Shown here in pieces: positions 6,778 to 56,693 of a DNA stretch of 64,000 nucleotides. The stretch lies in the UHGV virus genome UHGV-0200554; one strand, 5' to 3'. A program made the translations under genes and the position numbers. The number at the start of each line of letters is the position of its first letter. The stretch's first letter is position 1. The stretch comes from a virus. Below the pieces are notes generated by a model. The model did not search any database. It was not told where the DNA came from and saw nothing but the letters and a program-made list of their open reading frames with translations.

Positions 6778-6864
6778 ATGAAAGACTACTACAAAGCAAA
6801 CGAATATGAAAGGGTAGCAGATTTCATTAAAGAAATGTTAAAAGGTCTGAATAATAAAAAATGA
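6778..6864 (+). CDS. small protein (28 aa)
   Basis: ATG after acgaggaaaataaa RBS; below ORF-track cutoff. Confidence 0.3.
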   Translation: MKDYYKANEYERVADFIKEMLKGLNNKK

Positions 6865-6872
6865 GGTGGGGT

Positions 6873-6986
6873 ATGAAAAACAAGCAAGAAAGGCCCGAAG
6901 ATGACAAATTTACATGGCGTGAGCTTTTAAACATCTGGTACATCATTTACGGGCAACATTATAAACACAGAGGAGGGAGGTTATAA
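6873..6986 (+). CDS. small protein (37 aa)
   Basis: ATG after gaggtgggg RBS; followed by GGAGGGAGG..CCTCCC hairpin. Confidence 0.3.
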   Translation: MKNKQERPEDDKFTWRELLNIWYIIYGQHYKHRGGRL

Positions 6987-11943: not shown

Positions 11944-11967
11944 GGCCGCAAATAAGCGGCCTTTTTG
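11944..11967 (+). terminator. Intrinsic terminator (end of rightward small-gene block)
   Basis: GGCCGC-aaataa-GCGGCC hairpin followed by TTTTTGTT; near-identical to 8425 terminator. Confidence 0.75.
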
Positions 11968-12469
11968 TTGTCTGTAGTATAGTGAATCCGGTATTCAAAA
12001 CAGCGGATCATTCCGCGAACGCTATGCGTGATGTGTGCATAAAATAAAATGCCTATAAATTAACCACACCACAAAAAAGCTGTATGTGCATACATAGTTT
12101 TTAAGTTTTTTCAGTTTTCAGCTGTCAAATGTGGGGCATTTTGTGAAGTATCTCACACTTTTCGGCTGATGCACATTTTATATAGCTATGTCAACAACTA
12201 TAAATCTTTATAAAACAGTAAGTTACAAAGTCCATTTTTTGAAAAATCGGGTATAACTATAGGCGCGAAATTCTATTTTTCACGTAGCGTCACGATAAGA
12301 TGTATCTGATAGGTATGTTTTAATTATGCAATATTAATGCATAACCAACATGTGATAAATATTCTCAACAACCCGGCAGATGTATTAAATATGGTGACTA
12401 TTCCACCCCACATTATTTCAGACGGCAACTATTCCGATGTGTGATTAATATACTTTCAGGCGGTGATTA

Positions 12470-12620
12470 TTCTGTATCTCAATAATCTATATAATATAAT
12501 ATTAGTAATATAATTAGATTATGAGATACAAGAAAACATCTAAAATAGTAAAATTACAATTAATGAAAATATATAAATTGCATAAAATAAAATAAGACAA
12601 ATAACAATTTGCGAATGCAA
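12470..12620. other. AT-rich tract (candidate DNA unwinding element)
   Basis: About 150 bp of almost pure A/T (aataatctatataatataatattagtaatataatt...). Confidence 0.4.
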
Positions 12621-13060
12621 TGATCACAATATGCAACGATAACATGGCGCGACCGGAGGGAGCGACATAATAACGCTGAGTGACAATAACACCCCCGTGT
12701 TATTATCCAGCATTATTATCTCGCTAATTTATGATTATCTCATAAATTAACATGTAATAATCCTCAGCGTTATTATGTCCTCCAATAACAATAAAAATTG
12801 TTATGGTAACGCTGAGTTATTACTATGTTAATAAAAGGGCATAAAGCCCGGTACTATGTACCATTAAATAATCTAAAACGATTACGTTTTCTCAGCGTTA
12901 TTGTGTCAAATGTTATGATAACAGTATATAATTATCTTGCTAACTTTCAGTATACATATTCCGCGTAGCGTCATGTGGAGCGTGTAGTAAACCTGTAGCA
13001 AGATAAGAATAACGCTGAGGTATTGTACCGTATGCAACGATAACATGGCGCAACTATAAC
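12621..13060. repeat. Dispersed direct and inverted repeats
   Basis: ATGCAACGATAACATGGCGC at 12631 and 13032; ATAACGCTGAG x3 and its complement x2; TTCCGCGTAGCGTCATG at 12957 and 13555. Confidence 0.6.
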
Positions 13061-13216
13061 AGGCCTAAAGAGTAAGATAAACAATAGTTTATGTGTATAA
13101 TCGGCGGGGCCTCCTGGCTGCGCTGTGTGAAACTATCATGTATGGAAACAGTCCAGGATGTTATGATTTCAGCATGGGATTGTGTGTTTTTGAATTGTGT
13201 ACGGGTAAACTGTGTG

Positions 13217-13270
13217 GGGTAAGTATAGGGGAAGTATAGGGGAAGTATAGGGGAAGTATAGGGGAAGTAT
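13217..13270. repeat. Tandem 11-bp iterons (AAGTATAGGGG x4 plus partial)
   Basis: Perfect 11-bp tandem units at 13221, 13232, 13243, 13254; period matches one helical turn. Confidence 0.7.
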
Positions 13271-13578
13271 GCCTAACAAATTTCGTTCTTTTTGTCAACA
13301 ATTTTTCTATGAAAGTGGTCCGACCAGTTATAAGATGCATCTACGGAGCATGTTATGTAGCTGGTATGGTAGTGTGCCAGTGCAATATGATGCCCGGTCA
13401 TAGCTTGTGTGGTGTACCTGTTACACCAGTAAATAGAATTAATAGCAGGCTAACTACTACAATGATTAATCTTTTAGTGCTGTAATAAACCGCAATTATT
13501 CTCCTTTCGATTGTTTTCGTTTCCTTTCGTTTCTTATCGTTTGAGCTGTGTTTTATTCCGCGTAGCGTCATGCTGAGC

Positions 13579-13618
13579 TGTGGATAAGTCTGTGGATAAC
13601 CCTGCCTCCTGTGGATAA
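13579..13618. promoter_or_regulatory. Three tandem DnaA boxes (TGTGGATAA, complement of TTATCCACA)
   Basis: Exact 9-mer consensus at 13579-13587, 13591-13599, 13610-13618, same orientation. Confidence 0.65.
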
Positions 13619-13830
13619 CTGGCCTGCTATGCCTGCTGTGTGGTACTATTGAACTACTGTACAAATGATCATAAGTGCGTATAATCGGTGTTACGTATGA
13701 TGAACAATACGAAGTAATAATTATTCCCACATGAGAAGGCTTATCATTTACTTAAATGTTGCTGTGGAAAACTGTAACGCATGTTATTATTCAACCCCAC
13801 ACAATGAGGGCGTGAACAGTCCCCCCCTAT

Positions 13831-13868
13831 AATCACTGTGTGCAACTATTAATCACTGTGAGTAACTA
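13831..13868. repeat. Iteron cluster B (AATCACTGTG..AACTA x2)
   Basis: Two copies related to iteron cluster A at 300-500. Confidence 0.45.
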
Positions 13869-14419
13869 CCATGCAATAACTAGGCCAATGGTCGCAAGGC
13901 CCCGGCTATCAATTGCGTAAACAGCCTCGATATTTGAGAATCATTCGCATTATGAGAAGGAGTCGCGTTTCGCCTGCCTAATACCTCAGATGTGAGTCTG
14001 GGTGTATCGGCCCCGCACTACCCCTGCTTCAGGACAGGACCTGCGGTCCGGTGACAACAACTTGTTGTGCACCATTGAGGATATTTGCCCCGGTTTGTAT
14101 GAATACCTCTTCAGGCTGTGTACCTCCCCGTAGGGGGGGTATGGTGAGAGGTAGTACGAATAAAAAAAAAATGAAGCCCTCTTCAGGCCTGTGATATTTG
14201 TGTGGCTGATATTTGTGGGGAATCCAGTATTTACGGGACTCCTGGACAGGGCGGGGAGGTATACACAAAGGAGGTATTATGTTAAAGATATGTTAAAATA
14301 TGTGGTGCTCTTTAGGCATTATTCTTCAATGAAATCAAGTGCTTAGGCTATGTGTGGGTATTTTCTGTGAATAATTGGCATGTTAATCGGATCAAAGAGG
14401 ATTAAAGAAGGGAAATGAT

Positions 14420-47614: not shown

Positions 47615-47655
47615 GTAGCACCTCTCTTCTTATGCATACTCTTACCAGTAGGCGA

Positions 47656-47684
47656 ACCATAACATAATTTTCATTTGCTGTCAA
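47656..47684 (-). promoter_or_regulatory. sigma70 promoter for the long leftward block
   Basis: Minus strand TTGACA, 17 bp spacer, TATGGT, upstream of 47614 start. Confidence 0.5.
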
Positions 47685-47759
47685 TACTGATTTAAACGCT
47701 CTCAAACGCTCTGTAACGCTGTTGGTAGTTTAGTAATGCAACTGTAGCACTTAGTCACT

Positions 47760-47930
47760 ATTAGCTCACCACAGAAGCTACCAGAGGCCTCAAAGCCGAT
47801 TTCTGGTGTTGGGATAAGGTTGAAGCGGCGGCGCAGACTTTCGACGGCTCCTCCCGGCAGCTTCGCTTTTCGCCGTCATCCCACATTAGCACCTCCCTCA
47901 CGGTCGGTGATCTTCCCACACAACTCAGGC
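47760..47930. other. GC-rich unannotated segment (possible ncRNA or gene remnant)
   Basis: Locally GC-rich with no ORF of 60 aa or more in six frames. Confidence 0.25.
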
Positions 47931-47978
47931 AGCTCTGTTGTCACAGACCTGCTATGTACCCACATACATCTTCTGGAT
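47931..47978. repeat. 12-bp inverted repeat flanking AT-rich loop
   Basis: TTCTGGATTGTT..24 nt A/T..AACAATCCAGAA perfect arms. Confidence 0.5.
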
Positions 47979-48288
47979 TGTTGATAATATAATATAAAAT
48001 TTATTAAAACAATCCAGAAAAATAACCACCCACAGCCTGATCATCTGCTACAAAGCACTGCTTTGTCACTCCAGTGCTGTTGTCAGTGGATCATGATAAT
48101 AATTATCATTAAGAAAGAGATCATTGATCAATTTGTAACATGCATAAAAAGTATGTTGAAGAGAGATCATGGAGGTGGTGGTAAATACCACAGAACTACC
48201 ATCAAACAGACAGCGGAGGGTGTGCTTGGTATTAGCACCCACCTCCTAGTCTATTTTCTTTCTTTAGAAAGAAGAAAATAGTTAGGTG

Positions 48289-48403
48289 GGCCATTATTTG
48301 GCCCTTAGAATTCAGTTTAAGGGCCATTATTTGGCCCTTGGAAGCGTTTTAAGGGCCATTATTTGGCCCTTGGATTGACTTTTATGGGCCATTATTTGGC
48401 CCT
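48289..48403. repeat. Four copies of 17-bp palindrome GGGCCATTATTTGGCCC at ~33-bp period
   Basis: Perfect copies at 48289, 48322, 48354, 48387; arms GGGCCA/TGGCCC. Confidence 0.8.
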
Positions 48404-48594
48404 TAGAATCACTCATATTGGTGGGATTTATGGTATTTTCTGTTTATTGTCAAACAGTTATAACAGTATTTCATTCTGTTGGTATCTTTATATAGACCGA
48501 TCAGTCTATTACAACTATTTAACAAATGCCGACACTGTACAAAATTTCTGAGTTTTCATGTTTGACATTTCGTTAACAAATCACCAATACAGTA

Positions 48595-49269
48595 TTATTT
48601 TCTTCTTTGAGGGAAGGGTATGTGGTCATATCCTTTCCCTGCATTATCATTCACCCATTTCAGGAAGTCTATTCTGTCTTCGAACACGTATTTCAGGTCA
48701 CAACCCTCTGTACGGTACAGCATCAGGTAGTTCACCTGATTGGCATCTGGTAATTCATTCACCATTGCCAGGCGACGTGCTGGTACTCTCGTGCACAGAT
48801 TTTTACCATCTTGTGGTTGCCTGCTGATCACAAGGCCAATTGACTCCAGGAACTTGATACTTTCTGCTACCTTCCGGTTCCTGTTGTGGTTCTTGTCATA
48901 TGGCAATCCTGCTTCCATAGCGATTACATGTGTGGAATCCCCGCACCAGTTGTTCCTGTGCATATCTTCATAGCTTGTCTGCTTACGAATCTGGTAGCAT
49001 TTGAACTGGATTCTGTTCTGATCAGCAAGATGACTCAACACTGCCTTGTCAATATTGGTCAGAAACAGGCAGCTTTTCTCTGCCCACACACTACCAGCCT
49101 CAGGGATTCTTCGCTTATCGAAATCTTTCCTGTTGGTCACATCTGCCGGATTTTTCACCCACACAGCAAACAGGTTGTCAACCTTCCGATGACAATCGTC
49201 GTTGCCAAAGCAGATGTTTTTGTTGAACCAGTTCTCCAGTACGCTTGATTTGATCTCTTGTTCTGCCAT
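48595..49269 (-). CDS. hypothetical protein (224 aa)
   Basis: ORF from track; no motif recognised. Confidence 0.55.
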   Translation of the reverse strand: MAEQEIKSSVLENWFNKNICFGNDDCHRKVDNLFAVWVKNPADVTNRKDFDKRRIPEAGSVWAEKSCLFLTNIDKAVLSHLADQNRIQFKCYQIRKQTSYEDMHRNNWCGDSTHVIAMEAGLPYDKNHNRNRKVAESIKFLESIGLVISRQPQDGKNLCTRVPARRLAMVNELPDANQVNYLMLYRTEGCDLKYVFEDRIDFLKWVNDNAGKGYDHIPFPQRRK

Positions 49270-49329
49270 CTCTGTTACCTTCTTCTGTTTTTAACAGAGT
49301 ATAGCAGGCACAAGGCCTGCTGTCAATGT

Positions 49330-49746: not shown

Positions 49747-50045
49747 TGATTAGTCAAGAAACAGTACACGATATGGCACTGGCATTCATCCGTGAGGGGT
49801 GTGATGTGTGTTACATACCAAACCCTCGCCATCAGAATGACCCTGAAGACCCATCTATTTATCTTTCTGTATCTGGCAGAGGAATGGACCATCTTATCTA
49901 TCTCGGACTGAGTAGTAAGAGAAGGGATGAATATATTGAAAAATACCAGCAGGCAATTGATCAGGCAAAAGAAGACGCACATGGTGAACAGATGTACAAT
50001 TTTATTCCTGGTTTGGACGATTGTAAGGATGGAGGTGCTTTATGA
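49747..50045 (+). CDS. hypothetical protein (99 aa)
   Basis: Track ORF 49530..50045 trimmed to ATG after ggagg RBS. Confidence 0.55.
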
Positions 50046-50767
50046 AGAAGGTTTTAGAGTTTCAATTTGAAATTGCTGAAATAGGTGGAGAAAGACGGAG
50101 GCTTGTTAATGCAAGAGATTTGCATAAACAGTTAGGCATTCGTACACGCTTTAGTGACTGGATTAAAAGGTCATTAATTAATCAAAATTTCTTGCAAGAT
50201 GTTGATTTTATCGTGGTTCTCAAAAATGAGTATGACGCAAGTAAGTTTGGTGGCATACGTAAGCAAGAGGAATATTTATGCACTGTTGAGACAGCTAAAC
50301 ACCTTGCTATGATGGCGAAGACACCGAAAGGTAAAGAGGTTCGTAATTACTTTATCGAAATTGAAAGAAAGTACCGCGAGTACATGATTGAGCAACGGAG
50401 GTTGGCAAGGAAGATGCTTAACATGGAAAGCTCAACAGATATGGTCTGCATAACTGTTTCGGCGAAGAAAATCGCTAAAGTGCTTGGGATAACCATGTCT
50501 GTGTTTGACCTGAATGGATTCTTGAGGACGGATGGTTACAAGCATAAACATTGGTATAACGCAACTCTTGCTGGTCAGGAGGTGTGGAATGATTGGGTTA
50601 TGAAAAGCAAATATGGGGGTCATAGGTTTACAAGCCAGAACAGTATTAACATTGTGCAATGCCTGCTTTATGAAAAAGGTATTAGTAAGCTGGAGGATGA
50701 CATTTGGCAAGAACTTGTTTGGATTGTGTTCATGAAGAATTGGGTTGATTATCTTGCCAACAGATGA
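50042..50767 (+). CDS. Rha / antirepressor-like phage regulatory protein (241 aa)
   Basis: N-terminal segment ..LHKQLGIRTRFSDWIKR.. resembles Rha/Bro-N type domains; from memory only. Confidence 0.4.
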   Translation: MKKVLEFQFEIAEIGGERRRLVNARDLHKQLGIRTRFSDWIKRSLINQNFLQDVDFIVVLKNEYDASKFGGIRKQEEYLCTVETAKHLAMMAKTPKGKEVRNYFIEIERKYREYMIEQRRLARKMLNMESSTDMVCITVSAKKIAKVLGITMSVFDLNGFLRTDGYKHKHWYNATLAGQEVWNDWVMKSKYGGHRFTSQNSINIVQCLLYEKGISKLEDDIWQELVWIVFMKNWVDYLANR

Positions 50768-52968: not shown

Positions 52969-53261
52969 GGTGGTTACTTGCATTAGCGATTGCACTCACG
53001 TTTTCTATGGCCCTGGTAGGTTGTAGCTCACCTAAAAGTACGCCAGTTACAGTTGCACCGCAGAAAGTTGAACAACTTGCTGTAGAGCCTCCTGCGGCAG
53101 CTATGATCCCACCAGCAATAGCTATCCCCTTGGTGAAAGGTGCACCAGATGCGGATAACTCTGCAATTATGAGGCAGAACAATCTCTCCTGTAGCAATGA
53201 TCGTGCCAAATTAATCATCTTGCAGGATTATGTAAAATCTTTATTCAATAAGGAGAATTAA
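52965..53261 (+). CDS. o-spanin-like lipoprotein (Rz1-like; 98 aa)
   Basis: Signal peptide with lipobox LVGC; proline-rich mature part. Confidence 0.5.
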   Translation: MRWLLALAIALTFSMALVGCSSPKSTPVTVAPQKVEQLAVEPPAAAMIPPAIAIPLVKGAPDADNSAIMRQNNLSCSNDRAKLIILQDYVKSLFNKEN

Positions 53262-54374
53262 TGGCTAAAATGTATGGCCCATGCTCCCGTAAACAACAAA
53301 TGATTCTGGAAAATGATGCCGACTTCCTGATCATTGGTGGGGCAGCGGGTTGTTTGTCAATGCGACATGAGGTGATGACACCTAACGGGTGGATCAGAAT
53401 ATCGGAATGGGATGGTCAAGATATCCTCCAGTTTGATAAAGAAACTGGTAAGGCCATGTTTATCCAGCCTGAAGAGTTTGTTAAGCTGGAATGCGACAAA
53501 CTAACCAGGATTGTGCAGGATGGTATTTGTCAGGAATTATCCGACGAGCACACAGTTCTGTACGTCCCAGAAGACGGAACAGCTTACGGTACACTTAATT
53601 TCGGAGAAGTGGCTGAACAGTATGCTAACGGTGAGTTGGCAATGCGTATGCAGACCACGTTTGTGAACATGGGTGGTACTGGCCTTGGCATTTCTGACGA
53701 AGAGCTGAAAGAAAGGGCAAGATATTACAAATTCACAGATGAGTGGTATAATTGTGATCGTCGTCAGTTGTTGCAGATCTGGTATGAGATTTACCTGAAC
53801 GGTAATGATCCCCATGCCTACGTTGTTCCAACGAAAGAACAGGCTGATTTCTTGCAATACCTCGGATCATCTTTAGGTTTCAACGCACAGATCTTCTTCG
53901 AAGAAGGTTACAAAGTTGTGTTCTCTAATGAACGTGCAGGTACGATTGCTCTTAATAACGATGCAACGTTCGAAGAGTTTGAGCCGGAAGATGGTTACAA
54001 ATATTGTTTTGCTACCACAACAGGCTATTTTATCACCAGACTGGAAAACTGCATTGCAGTGACTGGTAACAGTGGTAAATCCTTTCTTCTACAGCTTCTC
54101 CCACTAAAGATGATAGATGACCCCAACACTTCTGTGGTGATGTTCCGTAGGACAACTCCACAACTGGAAGGTGAAGGTGGTCTGTGGCCTAAAGCACTGA
54201 GTGTGTATCTGGATCTTCCTGAGTACATGAGGCCGAAATTCAGAGAGAAAGACCATAAGTTTACTTTTCCATATTATGATGCAAAGACGGGCAAATGGAA
54301 TAAGAAAAGAGACGGAGCAGTAATCAAATACTGCCATATGGAATACGTCCAAGATAAGCTGAATCATCAAGGGT
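53261..54374 (+). CDS. Terminase large subunit, exon 1 (contains in-frame intein)
   Basis: Walker A GGAAG..SGKS split by intein; ORF ends at TAA at proposed 5' splice site. Confidence 0.7.
53351..54070 (+). mobile_element. Intein (240 aa) inserted in terminase P-loop
   Basis: Starts CLSMRH (Cys1), block-B-like DEHTV, ends TGN followed by Ser; removal restores GGAAGSGKS. Confidence 0.65.
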
Positions 54375-54901
54375 AAACAAACCTGCCCTTCGTGCCTAAT
54401 TCGGTGAAACTCCTTGACAAAAGGACAATACCGAGCTACGGTTAAAGGATTAGTTGAAACCGAGTGTAACGACTATCCCCGATGAGTGTAGGGGAGTAGA
54501 ATCACAAGCGATTGGTGATCCAAACGGCACGCCAAGGAGGGAAGAGCTAGTCTGTTCCACATGGTAACATGTGGCGGGTGTCTTAGCACACCGCGTCGGA
54601 GTAGCGATCCGGCGGGACAAAAGTGGAATATACTTTAATATGTTTTGATGAGGGTTAACTGGTAGCTCTCGTAAAACCTCCCTAATTGCGGGGAAATCTT
54701 TACTATTGACACCACCAACCTATTATGGTAACATAATATTGGCTTCGGAGAAATACCGAAGGTATGGTAATAGCGTGTTGATTTAGATAATCCGCAGCGA
54801 AGCATCCTGATAGGATGTGTGCTCAACGACTATCGCTTACGGGCGTTAGGGCCAAGCGGCTGGGGAAACCCACAGTCTTTTAAGACTGCCGAAACGGGAG
54901 G

Positions 54902-55581: not shown

Positions 55582-56693
55582 ATTGGGAGCAAATCGACTA
55601 CCTGATTTCTCGTATGAGGTCGAAATCGAAATACTCTTCACGGATGGTGATCAGCTGTAACCCGGATTCTGAACACTATTTAGCCAAACTGGTTCGTTGG
55701 TGGCTTGACGACGAGGGCTACCCAGATGAAAGCAAGTGTGGCGTTAAGCGCTATTTCATCCGTAGGGATGGGGAATTTATCTTCGGCGATACGCCAGAAG
55801 AGTTGATCGAGAAGTATACCTATGTTAACGGCAAAGGTGTTGAGATAATCCCAAAACCACTCTCTATCGCTTTTATCGGTGCAACAATCCACGATAACCC
55901 CATCTGCTTGCGTGATAACCCAGAATATCTTGCATTCCTGGAAGGTCTGCCAGAGCTGGAAAAAGCACAACTCCTCTACGGTAACTGGTTCGCTAAGCCT
56001 GAAGGTGCAAACTATTTCAGTCGCACATTCTTGAAAGATGCGGATCATGTCCCCCTCGGAGCAGTTTCTGTAAGAGCATGGGATAAAGCTGGTACAGAAC
56101 GTACCTCTGGCAACAAATTCCCCGACTATACAGCCAGTATCAAGGTCAGTAAGGATAGTGATGGTTACTACTACATCTCCGGTGACTATTGCCCTGAAAA
56201 CGTAGATGATGGCAGATATTCTACGGGCTTGCACGGTAAGTTCTGCAAGAAAGCTGGGGAACGTGATGTTATTATCAAGAAACAGGCAGAGTTTGATGGT
56301 GAGGACTGCGTAATTGTCTTCTCTGTGGACCCCGGTCAGGCAGGTAAGAGTGAGTTTCTTACTTCATCTCGTAAACTTCTTGCCGGAGGGTTCAGGGTAG
56401 AAGAAGACCCAATGCCGTCTAACAAATCAAAACTCACCCGTTTCTCCCCGTTTGCCAACCTTGCCCAACAAGGGATGGTGCGGCTTGTCCGGTCAAGTTT
56501 CGACCCGGATACACTGGAAGCATTTTTGACAGAGCTGGAGAAATTTAACGGCGAACGGTCAACCTTTAGCCGTAAAGATGATTGGGCTGACTCCATTGCT
56601 TCTGCAATTAACTACCTTGAAAAAGAGGAAGTTGCTATGCCATGTGTTATTCCGAAGATTGTTTCACCCTCTATGTATAAGAGGATGATTTAA
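55582..56693 (+). CDS. Terminase large subunit, exon 2 (nuclease domain)
   Basis: In-frame continuation from proposed 3' splice site; followed by UUCG-hairpin terminator. Confidence 0.6.

Follow-up and report, generated by a model that had tools for sequence, protein, structure and literature searches.

A palindrome array best read as an iteron-like module beside a gene for a predicted winged-helix protein in a phage related to rV5

In the F plasmid, sopC consists of tandem 43-bp units with inverted-repeat sites and lies directly past the gene of its binder, SopB. Phages of the rV5 type are widely isolated on enterobacteria, and to our knowledge neither replication origins nor initiators have been mapped for these (Vequintavirinae-type) phages. 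At the lambda origin, two iterons together with the AT tract suffice for unwinding (PMC7466680). In PhiTE, a phage of the rV5 type, the pseudo-ToxI locus imitates an antitoxin RNA of the host, and its copy number expands and contracts (PMC3475682).

The window, by which we mean the whole stretch of 64,000 nucleotides of viral DNA analysed here, carries a tandem array of four palindromes past the stop codon of an orphan gene for a 224-aa protein. Judged by the comparisons below, the locus is best read as an iteron-like array with its putative cognate gene, the product of which belongs to an unannotated protein family.

The palindrome array and its surroundings

The window comes from a large rV5-related myophage, whose terminase protein is 87% identical to that of rV5 and whose structural genes are ~77% identical in DNA. 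Its leftward block, a DNA-metabolism block, contains NrdD, ligase and HNH genes. For the 47-50 kb region no near match was found among GenBank phages, and megablast and blastn searches with the cassette that contains the array gave no matches in phage, plasmid or E. coli collections. Elsewhere in the window, the large terminase subunit is encoded in two ORFs (53261-54376 and 55614-56693) ~1.2 kb apart; the rV5 record joins this gene from three pieces, and an HNH endonuclease gene interrupts it. The segment 3850-20000 holds only small ORFs (<175 aa), many of them followed by individual GC-rich hairpins. Such regions are typical of the early regions of large phages. Recoding of stop codons was considered for the ORF-poor 4-20 kb region and dropped, since alternative genetic codes lengthen no ORFs there.

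Four identical copies of GGGCCATTATTTGGCCC are found on the plus strand, at 48288-48304, 48321-48337, 48353-48369 and 48386-48402. The original prediction of four identical 17-bp palindromes at 33-bp spacing is thus real, although its coordinates (48289, 48322, 48354 and 48387) were one base too high; the start-to-start spacing, which equals the centre-to-centre spacing, is 33, 32 and 33 bp. Each dyad is built of 6-bp arms, GGGCCA and TGGCCC, around a 5-bp centre, and at copies 2 and 3 the symmetry extends into a longer palindrome (AAGGGCCA/TGGCCCTT). The four nucleotides after copies 1 to 4 are TTAG, TTGG, TTGG and TTAG, as the predicted TT(A/G)G requires. The spacers carry a loosely symmetric TTYYAW flank on either side of a variable core of 4-6 bp. 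Tandem Repeats Finder describes the array as 3.7 copies of period 33 (score 172).

A search for further copies had been proposed; none was found outside the array in the 64-kb window with up to 3 mismatches allowed, and in the 139-141-kb contigs of two relatives the palindrome matches fall only within their arrays. Shuffled sequences gave a mean of 0.17 matches to GGGCCATTATTTGGCCC, and none of 100 reached four. The array does not fit extragenic palindromes of the REP/BIME type, there being one locus in the window and not many dispersed copies.

The same prediction held that the palindromes lack a U-tract and are not simple terminators. This stands for the local hairpins, none of which is followed by a T-run. 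It does not extend to alternative hairpins between adjacent palindromes, which a terminator scan flagged on the plus strand, followed by TTATTT. These alternative plus-strand terminators were dropped because they are lost in two distant carriers (L038 and L051), and an intrinsic (Rho-independent) terminator was dropped because no local GC-rich hairpin with a U-run exists at the array. Pairing between spacers 1 and 3 was likewise discarded, being absent from a close relative (L006). RNA folding gave -13.3 kcal/mol per array unit on the gene strand and -17.3 kcal/mol on the other. Searches of the array against Rfam, with E-value and gathering thresholds, returned nothing credible and no ToxI or CRISPR-DR match.

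About 1 kb of non-coding DNA surrounds the array. Read along the minus strand, the order is promoter-like site, 224-aa gene, AT-rich spacer, four palindromes, AT hairpin and GC-rich inverted repeat (Table 1).

Table 1. Coordinates of the features at the locus, in window positions
Feature	Position	Strand	Remarks
Sigma-70-type promoter-like site	49298..49326	-	TTGACA-17-TATACT with TG; closely precedes the 224-aa gene; consensus match only
Orphan 224-aa protein gene	48595..49269	-	Predicted central winged-helix domain, ~residues 100-167; proposed array binder
AT-rich spacer, stop codon to array	48403..48594	.	190 bp, 70% AT
Palindrome array	48288..48402	.	Four 17-bp dyads, GGGCCA-TTATT-TGGCCC
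AT-rich hairpin/element and conserved junction AGTTAGGT (= ACCTAACT on gene strand)	48251..48287	.	Abuts the array
Long GC-rich inverted repeat	48171..48246	.	20-nt arms, then T-rich runs on both strands
Exchangeable cassette	47950..48653	.	Swapped in L009-type phages, including the last ~20 codons of the 224-aa gene

The promoter-like site upstream of the gene has an identical copy in a close relative (L007, 3944-3972). The spacer evolves fast, with 78% identity to L007 and no indels, and it is missing in the distant lineage described below, where the array begins 5-15 nt past the stop codon. A small plus-strand ORF at 48384-48551 is open in three genomes, but its substitutions show no codon-position bias and it was rejected. 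Of two further palindromes predicted nearby, one is present at 48251-48281 (31 bp, 77% AT) with 10-bp perfect arms, and its stem is kept despite changed sequence in L037 and L038, where a C-G pair has become A-T. The other, at 47931-47978, contains only 4-5-bp inverted repeats; the inverted repeat near that position is 47971-47982/48008-48019, with 12-bp arms and a loop of 96% AT. The GC-rich inverted repeat looks, by eye, like a two-way terminator-like element, and the terminator scan did not flag it. The block 48165-48287 is identical to L007 at 123/123 positions and to L008 at 122/123.

Several other observations were made in this non-coding DNA. The block 48165-48287 is near-invariant though differences amount to 5% in the adjacent gene and to 8-22% in the spacer, and it may encode a small RNA on the plus strand, running from the promoter-like site at 48080-48109 to the hairpin with its T-rich tail. 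Promoter-like sites are present on both strands ~180 bp from the array, and a 17-bp palindrome, ATGATAATAATTATCAT (48093-48109, within 48080-48131), overlaps the -10 hexamers of both; we take this palindrome to resemble a Fur box. At 47694-47720, 2.7 tandem copies of the 10-bp repeat AAACGCTCTC closely precede the promoter-like site of the HNH gene (47684-47656). A cluster of GATC sites at 48039-48170 was considered as an origin mark and dropped, as it is ordinary for this genome. Past the GC hairpin, a non-coding stretch of ~250-300 nt is seen in other genomes (L037 1085-1400, L038 1510-1780, L051 3080-3330, L062 4120-4370, L063 4110-4370); it is conserved across distant lineages, its stems appear to co-vary, e.g. 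GACCCCTACGGGGTC versus GACCTTAACAGGTC, and it has no Rfam match.

Conservation of the repeat and its co-variation with the adjacent protein

Relatives were collected by exact and pattern scans and by look-ups of the 224-aa protein, and they fall into three groups. Close relatives (L005-L008, L040, L042, L046, L052) carry 3-4 palindrome copies. A distant lineage (L037, L038, L051, L053-L059), the protein of which is 55-58% identical, carries two or three, and by tblastx these distant carriers share nothing with the window beyond the gene-array module. Sister phages (L009, L035, L036), on the other hand, are ~90% identical in the flanks, but the cassette of Table 1 is replaced by another one and the palindromes are absent. 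Scans of genomes and metagenomes for paired palindromes found only unrelated GC-rich repeats and four more members of the same clade; neither array nor cassette was matched in E. coli genomes or plasmids, and all paired-palindrome matches in GTDB representatives were unrelated. The pattern used for genomes covered 8-38 nt between copies, so that CRISPR-type spacing would be missed. So far, the module is known only from uncultivated (metagenomic) phages. In two distant lineages a tyrosine recombinase gene (200-208 aa) was seen as well (L054 6282-6884, L061 5446-6072); a link between recombinase and array was dropped, as the window has no homologue.

At the 13 loci ascertained through the protein, a tolerant scan recovered 38 palindrome copies with no arm substitution, while the protein is 55-100% identical across palindrome-bearing loci. 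Compared with L007, palindromes match at 68/68 positions and spacers at 38/47 (Fisher p = 2e-4), the 224-aa gene being 94.5% identical, and in the distant lineage the AT hairpin region beside the array is only ~76% identical. The arms thus remain invariant while their surroundings diverge, which shows that the arm sequence itself, and not just its ability to pair, is under purifying selection. The 5-bp centre varies at one position only (NTATT). Relative to unchanged flanks it is flipped between lineages, reading AATAA on the gene strand here and TTATT in the distant lineage, and the array centre is orientation-insensitive.

The 224-aa protein has no sequence match in Pfam, PHROG, NCBIfam, PADLOC or the PDB. 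AF2 reached a pLDDT of 41 with seven close sequences, and a pLDDT of 59 (pTM 0.62) with nine sequences that included the remote branch described below. In the model, residues 100-167 form a helix-helix-helix-strand-strand winged helix (pLDDT 70-86), a fold that we predict with moderate confidence. The best Foldseek matches of the model are weak and are to N-terminal domains of plasmid initiators, which is only a hint of kinship to initiators. Membership in a known Rep or O family was not found; the predicted fold is a generic winged helix. An HNH-nuclease reading of the motif WCGDSxH...NHNRN was dropped, since the motif is absent in the remote homologues and falls, in the model, on helices 2-3 of the winged-helix domain.

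Searching 1.8 billion representatives with a profile led to a remote branch of the family (P0009). Its relatives P0039-P0041 have lengths of 303-311 aa and share 25-30% identity with the window protein. Directly past the stop codon, these remote homologues carry another repeat in five copies, G(T/G)ATCA-N3-TGAT(A/C)C, spaced by 33, 22, 22 and 22 bp. A 22-bp period is typical of plasmid iterons. Past the repeats follow the same junction, CCTAACTA, and then an AT-rich stretch and a GC-rich hairpin. Across the family, spacings are ~22 or 32-34 bp (34 and 33/34 in other relatives), all near multiples of 11 bp; they are quantised in steps of ~11 bp, which is helical phasing. What is more, helix 3 of the model, the putative recognition helix, reads HNRN(R/H)K(V/I)xESIxFL in every GGGCCA lineage, and the same segment reads AG(K/Q)RxxVQRxLxKLEL in the GTATCA lineages. 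Repeat and putative recognition helix change together. The remote repeats fold as RNA with only 0 to -5.9 kcal/mol, compared with -13 to -17 here; the stability of an RNA hairpin is not conserved in the family.

Taken together, the co-variation, the selection on the arms, the phasing and the unstable remote hairpins suggest that the adjacent protein recognises the repeats as duplex DNA, and hairpin formation would then be incidental to dyad symmetry. This comparative evidence supports the proposal of a multi-site array for a dimeric, sequence-specific DNA-binding protein. Two genes had been named as candidate binders. The 224-aa gene is favoured by its array-linked homologues and by the putative recognition helix that co-varies with the repeat; nothing ties the other, an AntA-like protein encoded at 50042..50767, to the array. 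The L009-type phages have an intact 236-aa homologue with the same helix and no palindromes (a 117.8-kb contig was examined), and one such copy (P0004) lacks 11 residues of the wing. The protein, then, either has some role independent of the sites or is decaying in those phages.

Interchangeable modules and a proposed origin

In the L009-type phages, the replacing cassette contains a gene for a 132-aa winged-helix protein, 11-12-bp repeats (three direct, one inverted) spaced by 22-24 bp, and a tract of 84% AT. Four contigs of 118-141 kb from one metagenome include two with the palindromes and two with the 132-aa module, never both. In the same genome neighbourhood of rV5 lies gp075, a small winged-helix gene annotated 'replication initiation protein'. 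About 70 bp past it we found four 17-bp palindromes, TGTCCG-N5-CGGACA, with 21-22-bp spacing (6850-6935 on the reverse strand of NC_011041; L001), and after them an AT tract of ~140 bp (79% AT). The AT tracts of the rV5 and L009-type modules span 80-140 bp at 79-84% AT. The rV5 record has no repeat or regulatory annotation over the four palindromes, and we know of no characterisation of this array so far. No homologue of gp075 or of the 132-aa protein was found in the window. As further observations on the alternative cassette, its copies at L009 4729-5745 and L035 4729-5770 and in L074 carry GTA(C/T)GGAAACC repeats and ACTAAGT-type repeats, and in contig 157310 the gene upstream of it encodes an AntA N-terminus fused to the C-terminal ~60 residues of the 236-aa protein (P0008).

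In the mechanism we propose, the four palindromes would be dyad sites on duplex DNA, about three helical turns apart, so that the proteins bound to them would sit on the same face of the helix. The binder would be the winged-helix protein encoded immediately upstream on the minus strand, probably acting as dimers, and gene and sites would form a two-part module that moves as one between otherwise unrelated phages. The resulting multi-dimer complex would consist of an initiator-like protein on repeated sites beside AT-rich DNA, and the module would occupy the place that modules of a winged-helix gene, repeats and an AT-rich tract have in the sister phages and in rV5. That the 224-aa protein binds the sites, and does so as a dimer, we infer from the comparisons above; a role in replication rather than in transcription or partition is suggested by analogy.

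We hold it somewhat more probable than an even chance that the array is a set of evenly phased duplex-DNA sites for the adjacent winged-helix protein and that its job, most likely, is that of an origin or origin-control element. The origin role is ranked first because interchangeable modules of binding protein, repeats and AT-rich DNA resemble lambda ori. A bolder version, which we regard as tentative and rather doubtful, is that the locus is an origin module of initiator and iterons, not described before and based on an orphan winged-helix family, that is mobile between unrelated phages and has replaced the rV5-type module of gp075, palindromes and AT tract in this clade. If true, large virulent phages would swap origins, and the module would pinpoint the unmapped replication origin of rV5-like phages.

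Of the features by which iteron origins are recognised, the array has phased tandem repeats of one site and, as far as alignments can tell, a linked gene that co-varies with them. Against an origin at the array count the homologue that sister phages keep without sites, the modest AT-rich DNA beside it, 31 bp at 77% on one side and 190 bp at 70% on the other, and the position of the perfect DnaA boxes, which occur in the window only at 13579-13618, 35 kb from the array; the nearest box with one mismatch is at 47979. Not every iteron origin requires DnaA boxes. The minimum of GC skew, at 49.4-50 kb, coincides with the divergence of transcription. The three perfect DnaA boxes lie in a 2.4-kb region, 11960-14400, with no ORF of at least 60 aa and 37% GC, which also holds five tandem copies of an 11-bp repeat, GGGGAAGTATA (13217-13270), an AT-rich block (12450-12620) and several dispersed repeats of 12-25 bp; this region looks like an origin or regulatory hub. 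A non-coding element of the hub, 12138-12305 (110-170 bp), is 76-80% conserved in two other phages (L037 1709-1816, L063 4838-5005), where it lies 0.7-0.9 kb downstream of the array. Module and hub are thus neighbours in other phages.

Other readings and comparison with known systems

The array could act as RNA, its units being hairpins in the 3' UTR of the 224-aa mRNA that serve as stabilisers against 3' exonucleases, as processing sites or as sites for an RNA-binding protein. It always lies between the stop codon and the GC-rich hairpin, downstream of a strong promoter-like site, and is probably transcribed; each unit folds stably (-13.3 and -17.3 kcal/mol), the neighbouring AT hairpin holds its stem through base changes, copy number varies (2, 3 or 4), and the conserved NTATT centre is not what a pure spacer would predict. 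Yet the 38 copies contain no compensatory changes, which a structural hairpin would be expected to show, and the loop is flipped between lineages (AAUAA versus UUAUU on the gene strand) with the flanks constant. Since, in addition, the remote arrays barely fold (0 to -5.9 kcal/mol), spacing in 11-bp steps has no RNA rationale and an Rfam match is absent, we consider a structural RNA improbable. A more specific RNA would be a decoy against host defence, a tandem-repeat non-coding RNA that mimics a type III antitoxin or a CRISPR repeat. The flanks, GUUUA...UUAGAAU, are in our estimation loosely like the ends of type I-F repeats. A 33-nt unit in 2-4 copies within an accessory cassette would suit such a decoy, and pseudo-ToxI of PhiTE sets a precedent in an rV5-like phage (PMC3475682). 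The array, however, matches neither ToxI nor CRISPR-DR in Rfam, its spacer cores vary within the array and between genomes, unlike those of antitoxin repeats, no host genome with paired copies was found (gaps of 8-38 nt were covered, CRISPR-type spacing lying outside the pattern), and the co-varying upstream protein suggests a phage-encoded partner; a decoy is the least probable of the readings, and very unlikely. ToxI-like type III antitoxin repeats proper, which are identical throughout a unit of 34-45 nt and precede an endoribonuclease toxin gene, fail on the variable spacer cores, the missing toxin-like gene downstream and the missing Rfam match.

Among readings on DNA, a protein-bound array might control transcription, as a roadblock or insulator at the end of an early gene or as a remote operator. 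Its position is suggestive, where a short, early-looking unit meets the leftward block and beside the two-way terminator-like hairpin, with promoter-like sites ~180 bp away on both strands that the palindrome at 48093-48109 overlaps. It had originally been taken for the operator of the promoter of the 32-kb leftward block, and here the comparisons speak against it: the array follows a stop codon, no conserved promoter-like site lies within, next to or across it (the TTGACA at 48447-48452 is lost in L006), and the ~90% identical sister phages retain 47615-47950 upstream of the leftward block, a region with a promoter-like site in the window, but have no palindromes. Sites that lie past their own regulator gene and move with it between unrelated phages fit replicon or partition modules better than operators, and we give transcriptional control as small a chance as the structural RNA. 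Somewhat less probable again is a binder other than the 224-aa protein, such as a host protein, a terminase small subunit at a pac site, a recombinase or a centromere-type partner, with the gene linkage coincidental. In its favour, the gene occurs in L009-type phages that have no sites, a small tyrosine recombinase is encoded 1.5-2 kb downstream of the array in some distant carriers, and a pac site must exist somewhere if rV5-like phages are circularly permuted, as reported (PMC3475682). But the repeat changes together with the upstream protein across three lineages, the window contains no homologue of the recombinase, close relatives lack the array, which speaks against a core function such as pac, and no match to array or cassette was found in E. 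coli genomes or plasmids, those to the pattern in GTDB representatives being unrelated.

With recognition by the adjacent protein as the preferred reading, the locus offers a testable pair of one orphan protein and a 115-bp array; the sister phages add naturally occurring 'swap' variants, and rV5 an analogous array that has apparently gone unnoticed. Even if the role proved to be regulatory, a putative DNA target and a predicted winged-helix fold would be gained for an unannotated protein family, and the alignments suggest that arrays of binding sites and recognition helices co-evolve here as a portable unit.

Compared with described systems, the array is like the pseudo-ToxI of PhiTE in being a short tandem repeat of variable copy number in a non-coding accessory locus of an rV5-like phage (PMC3475682). 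It differs in that pseudo-ToxI is a pseudoknot mimic with the whole unit identical, whereas the array conserves the dyad only and co-varies with a phage protein, and in that no host counterpart was found here (gaps of 8-38 nt covered). With sopC and SopB it shares tandem inverted-repeat units directly downstream of the gene of the binder, which is a proposed one here. The unit differs in length, 43 bp against 33 bp, the 224-aa protein has no match to ParB or ParA domain families, homologues of these two were not detected near the array, and the phage looks virulent, with no obvious need for partition. A centromere of the ParB-parS or SopB-sopC kind thus fails on the ParB-family binder and the ParA partner, although the architecture, with sites after the gene, is similar.

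Iteron plasmid replicons with winged-helix Rep proteins (RepA_N, e.g. PDB 4pql, 4pt7 and 5kbj) resemble the module in combining a winged-helix protein with tandem repeats at multiples of 22 bp, and RepA_N N-terminal domains are the best Foldseek matches of the 224-aa model. The gp075 module of rV5 has four 17-bp palindromes of identical 6-5-6 geometry and AT-rich DNA after a small winged-helix gene; its protein and repeat sequence are different, and its spacing is 21-22 bp compared with 33 bp here. In lambda, the iterons lie inside the O gene at a spacing of ~2 turns, while the array of the window follows its gene at ~3 turns; sequence similarity to O is lacking (the Pfam scan was empty) and the AT-rich flank is weak in the window. 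On the other hand, the four inverted repeats of lambda ori, to each of which a dimer of the initiator O binds, and their linkage to the initiator gene have their counterpart at this locus, binding being predicted here; lambda ori is flanked by AT-rich DNA, as is, more modestly, the array, and the sufficiency of two iterons in lambda matches the 2-copy arrays of the distant lineage.
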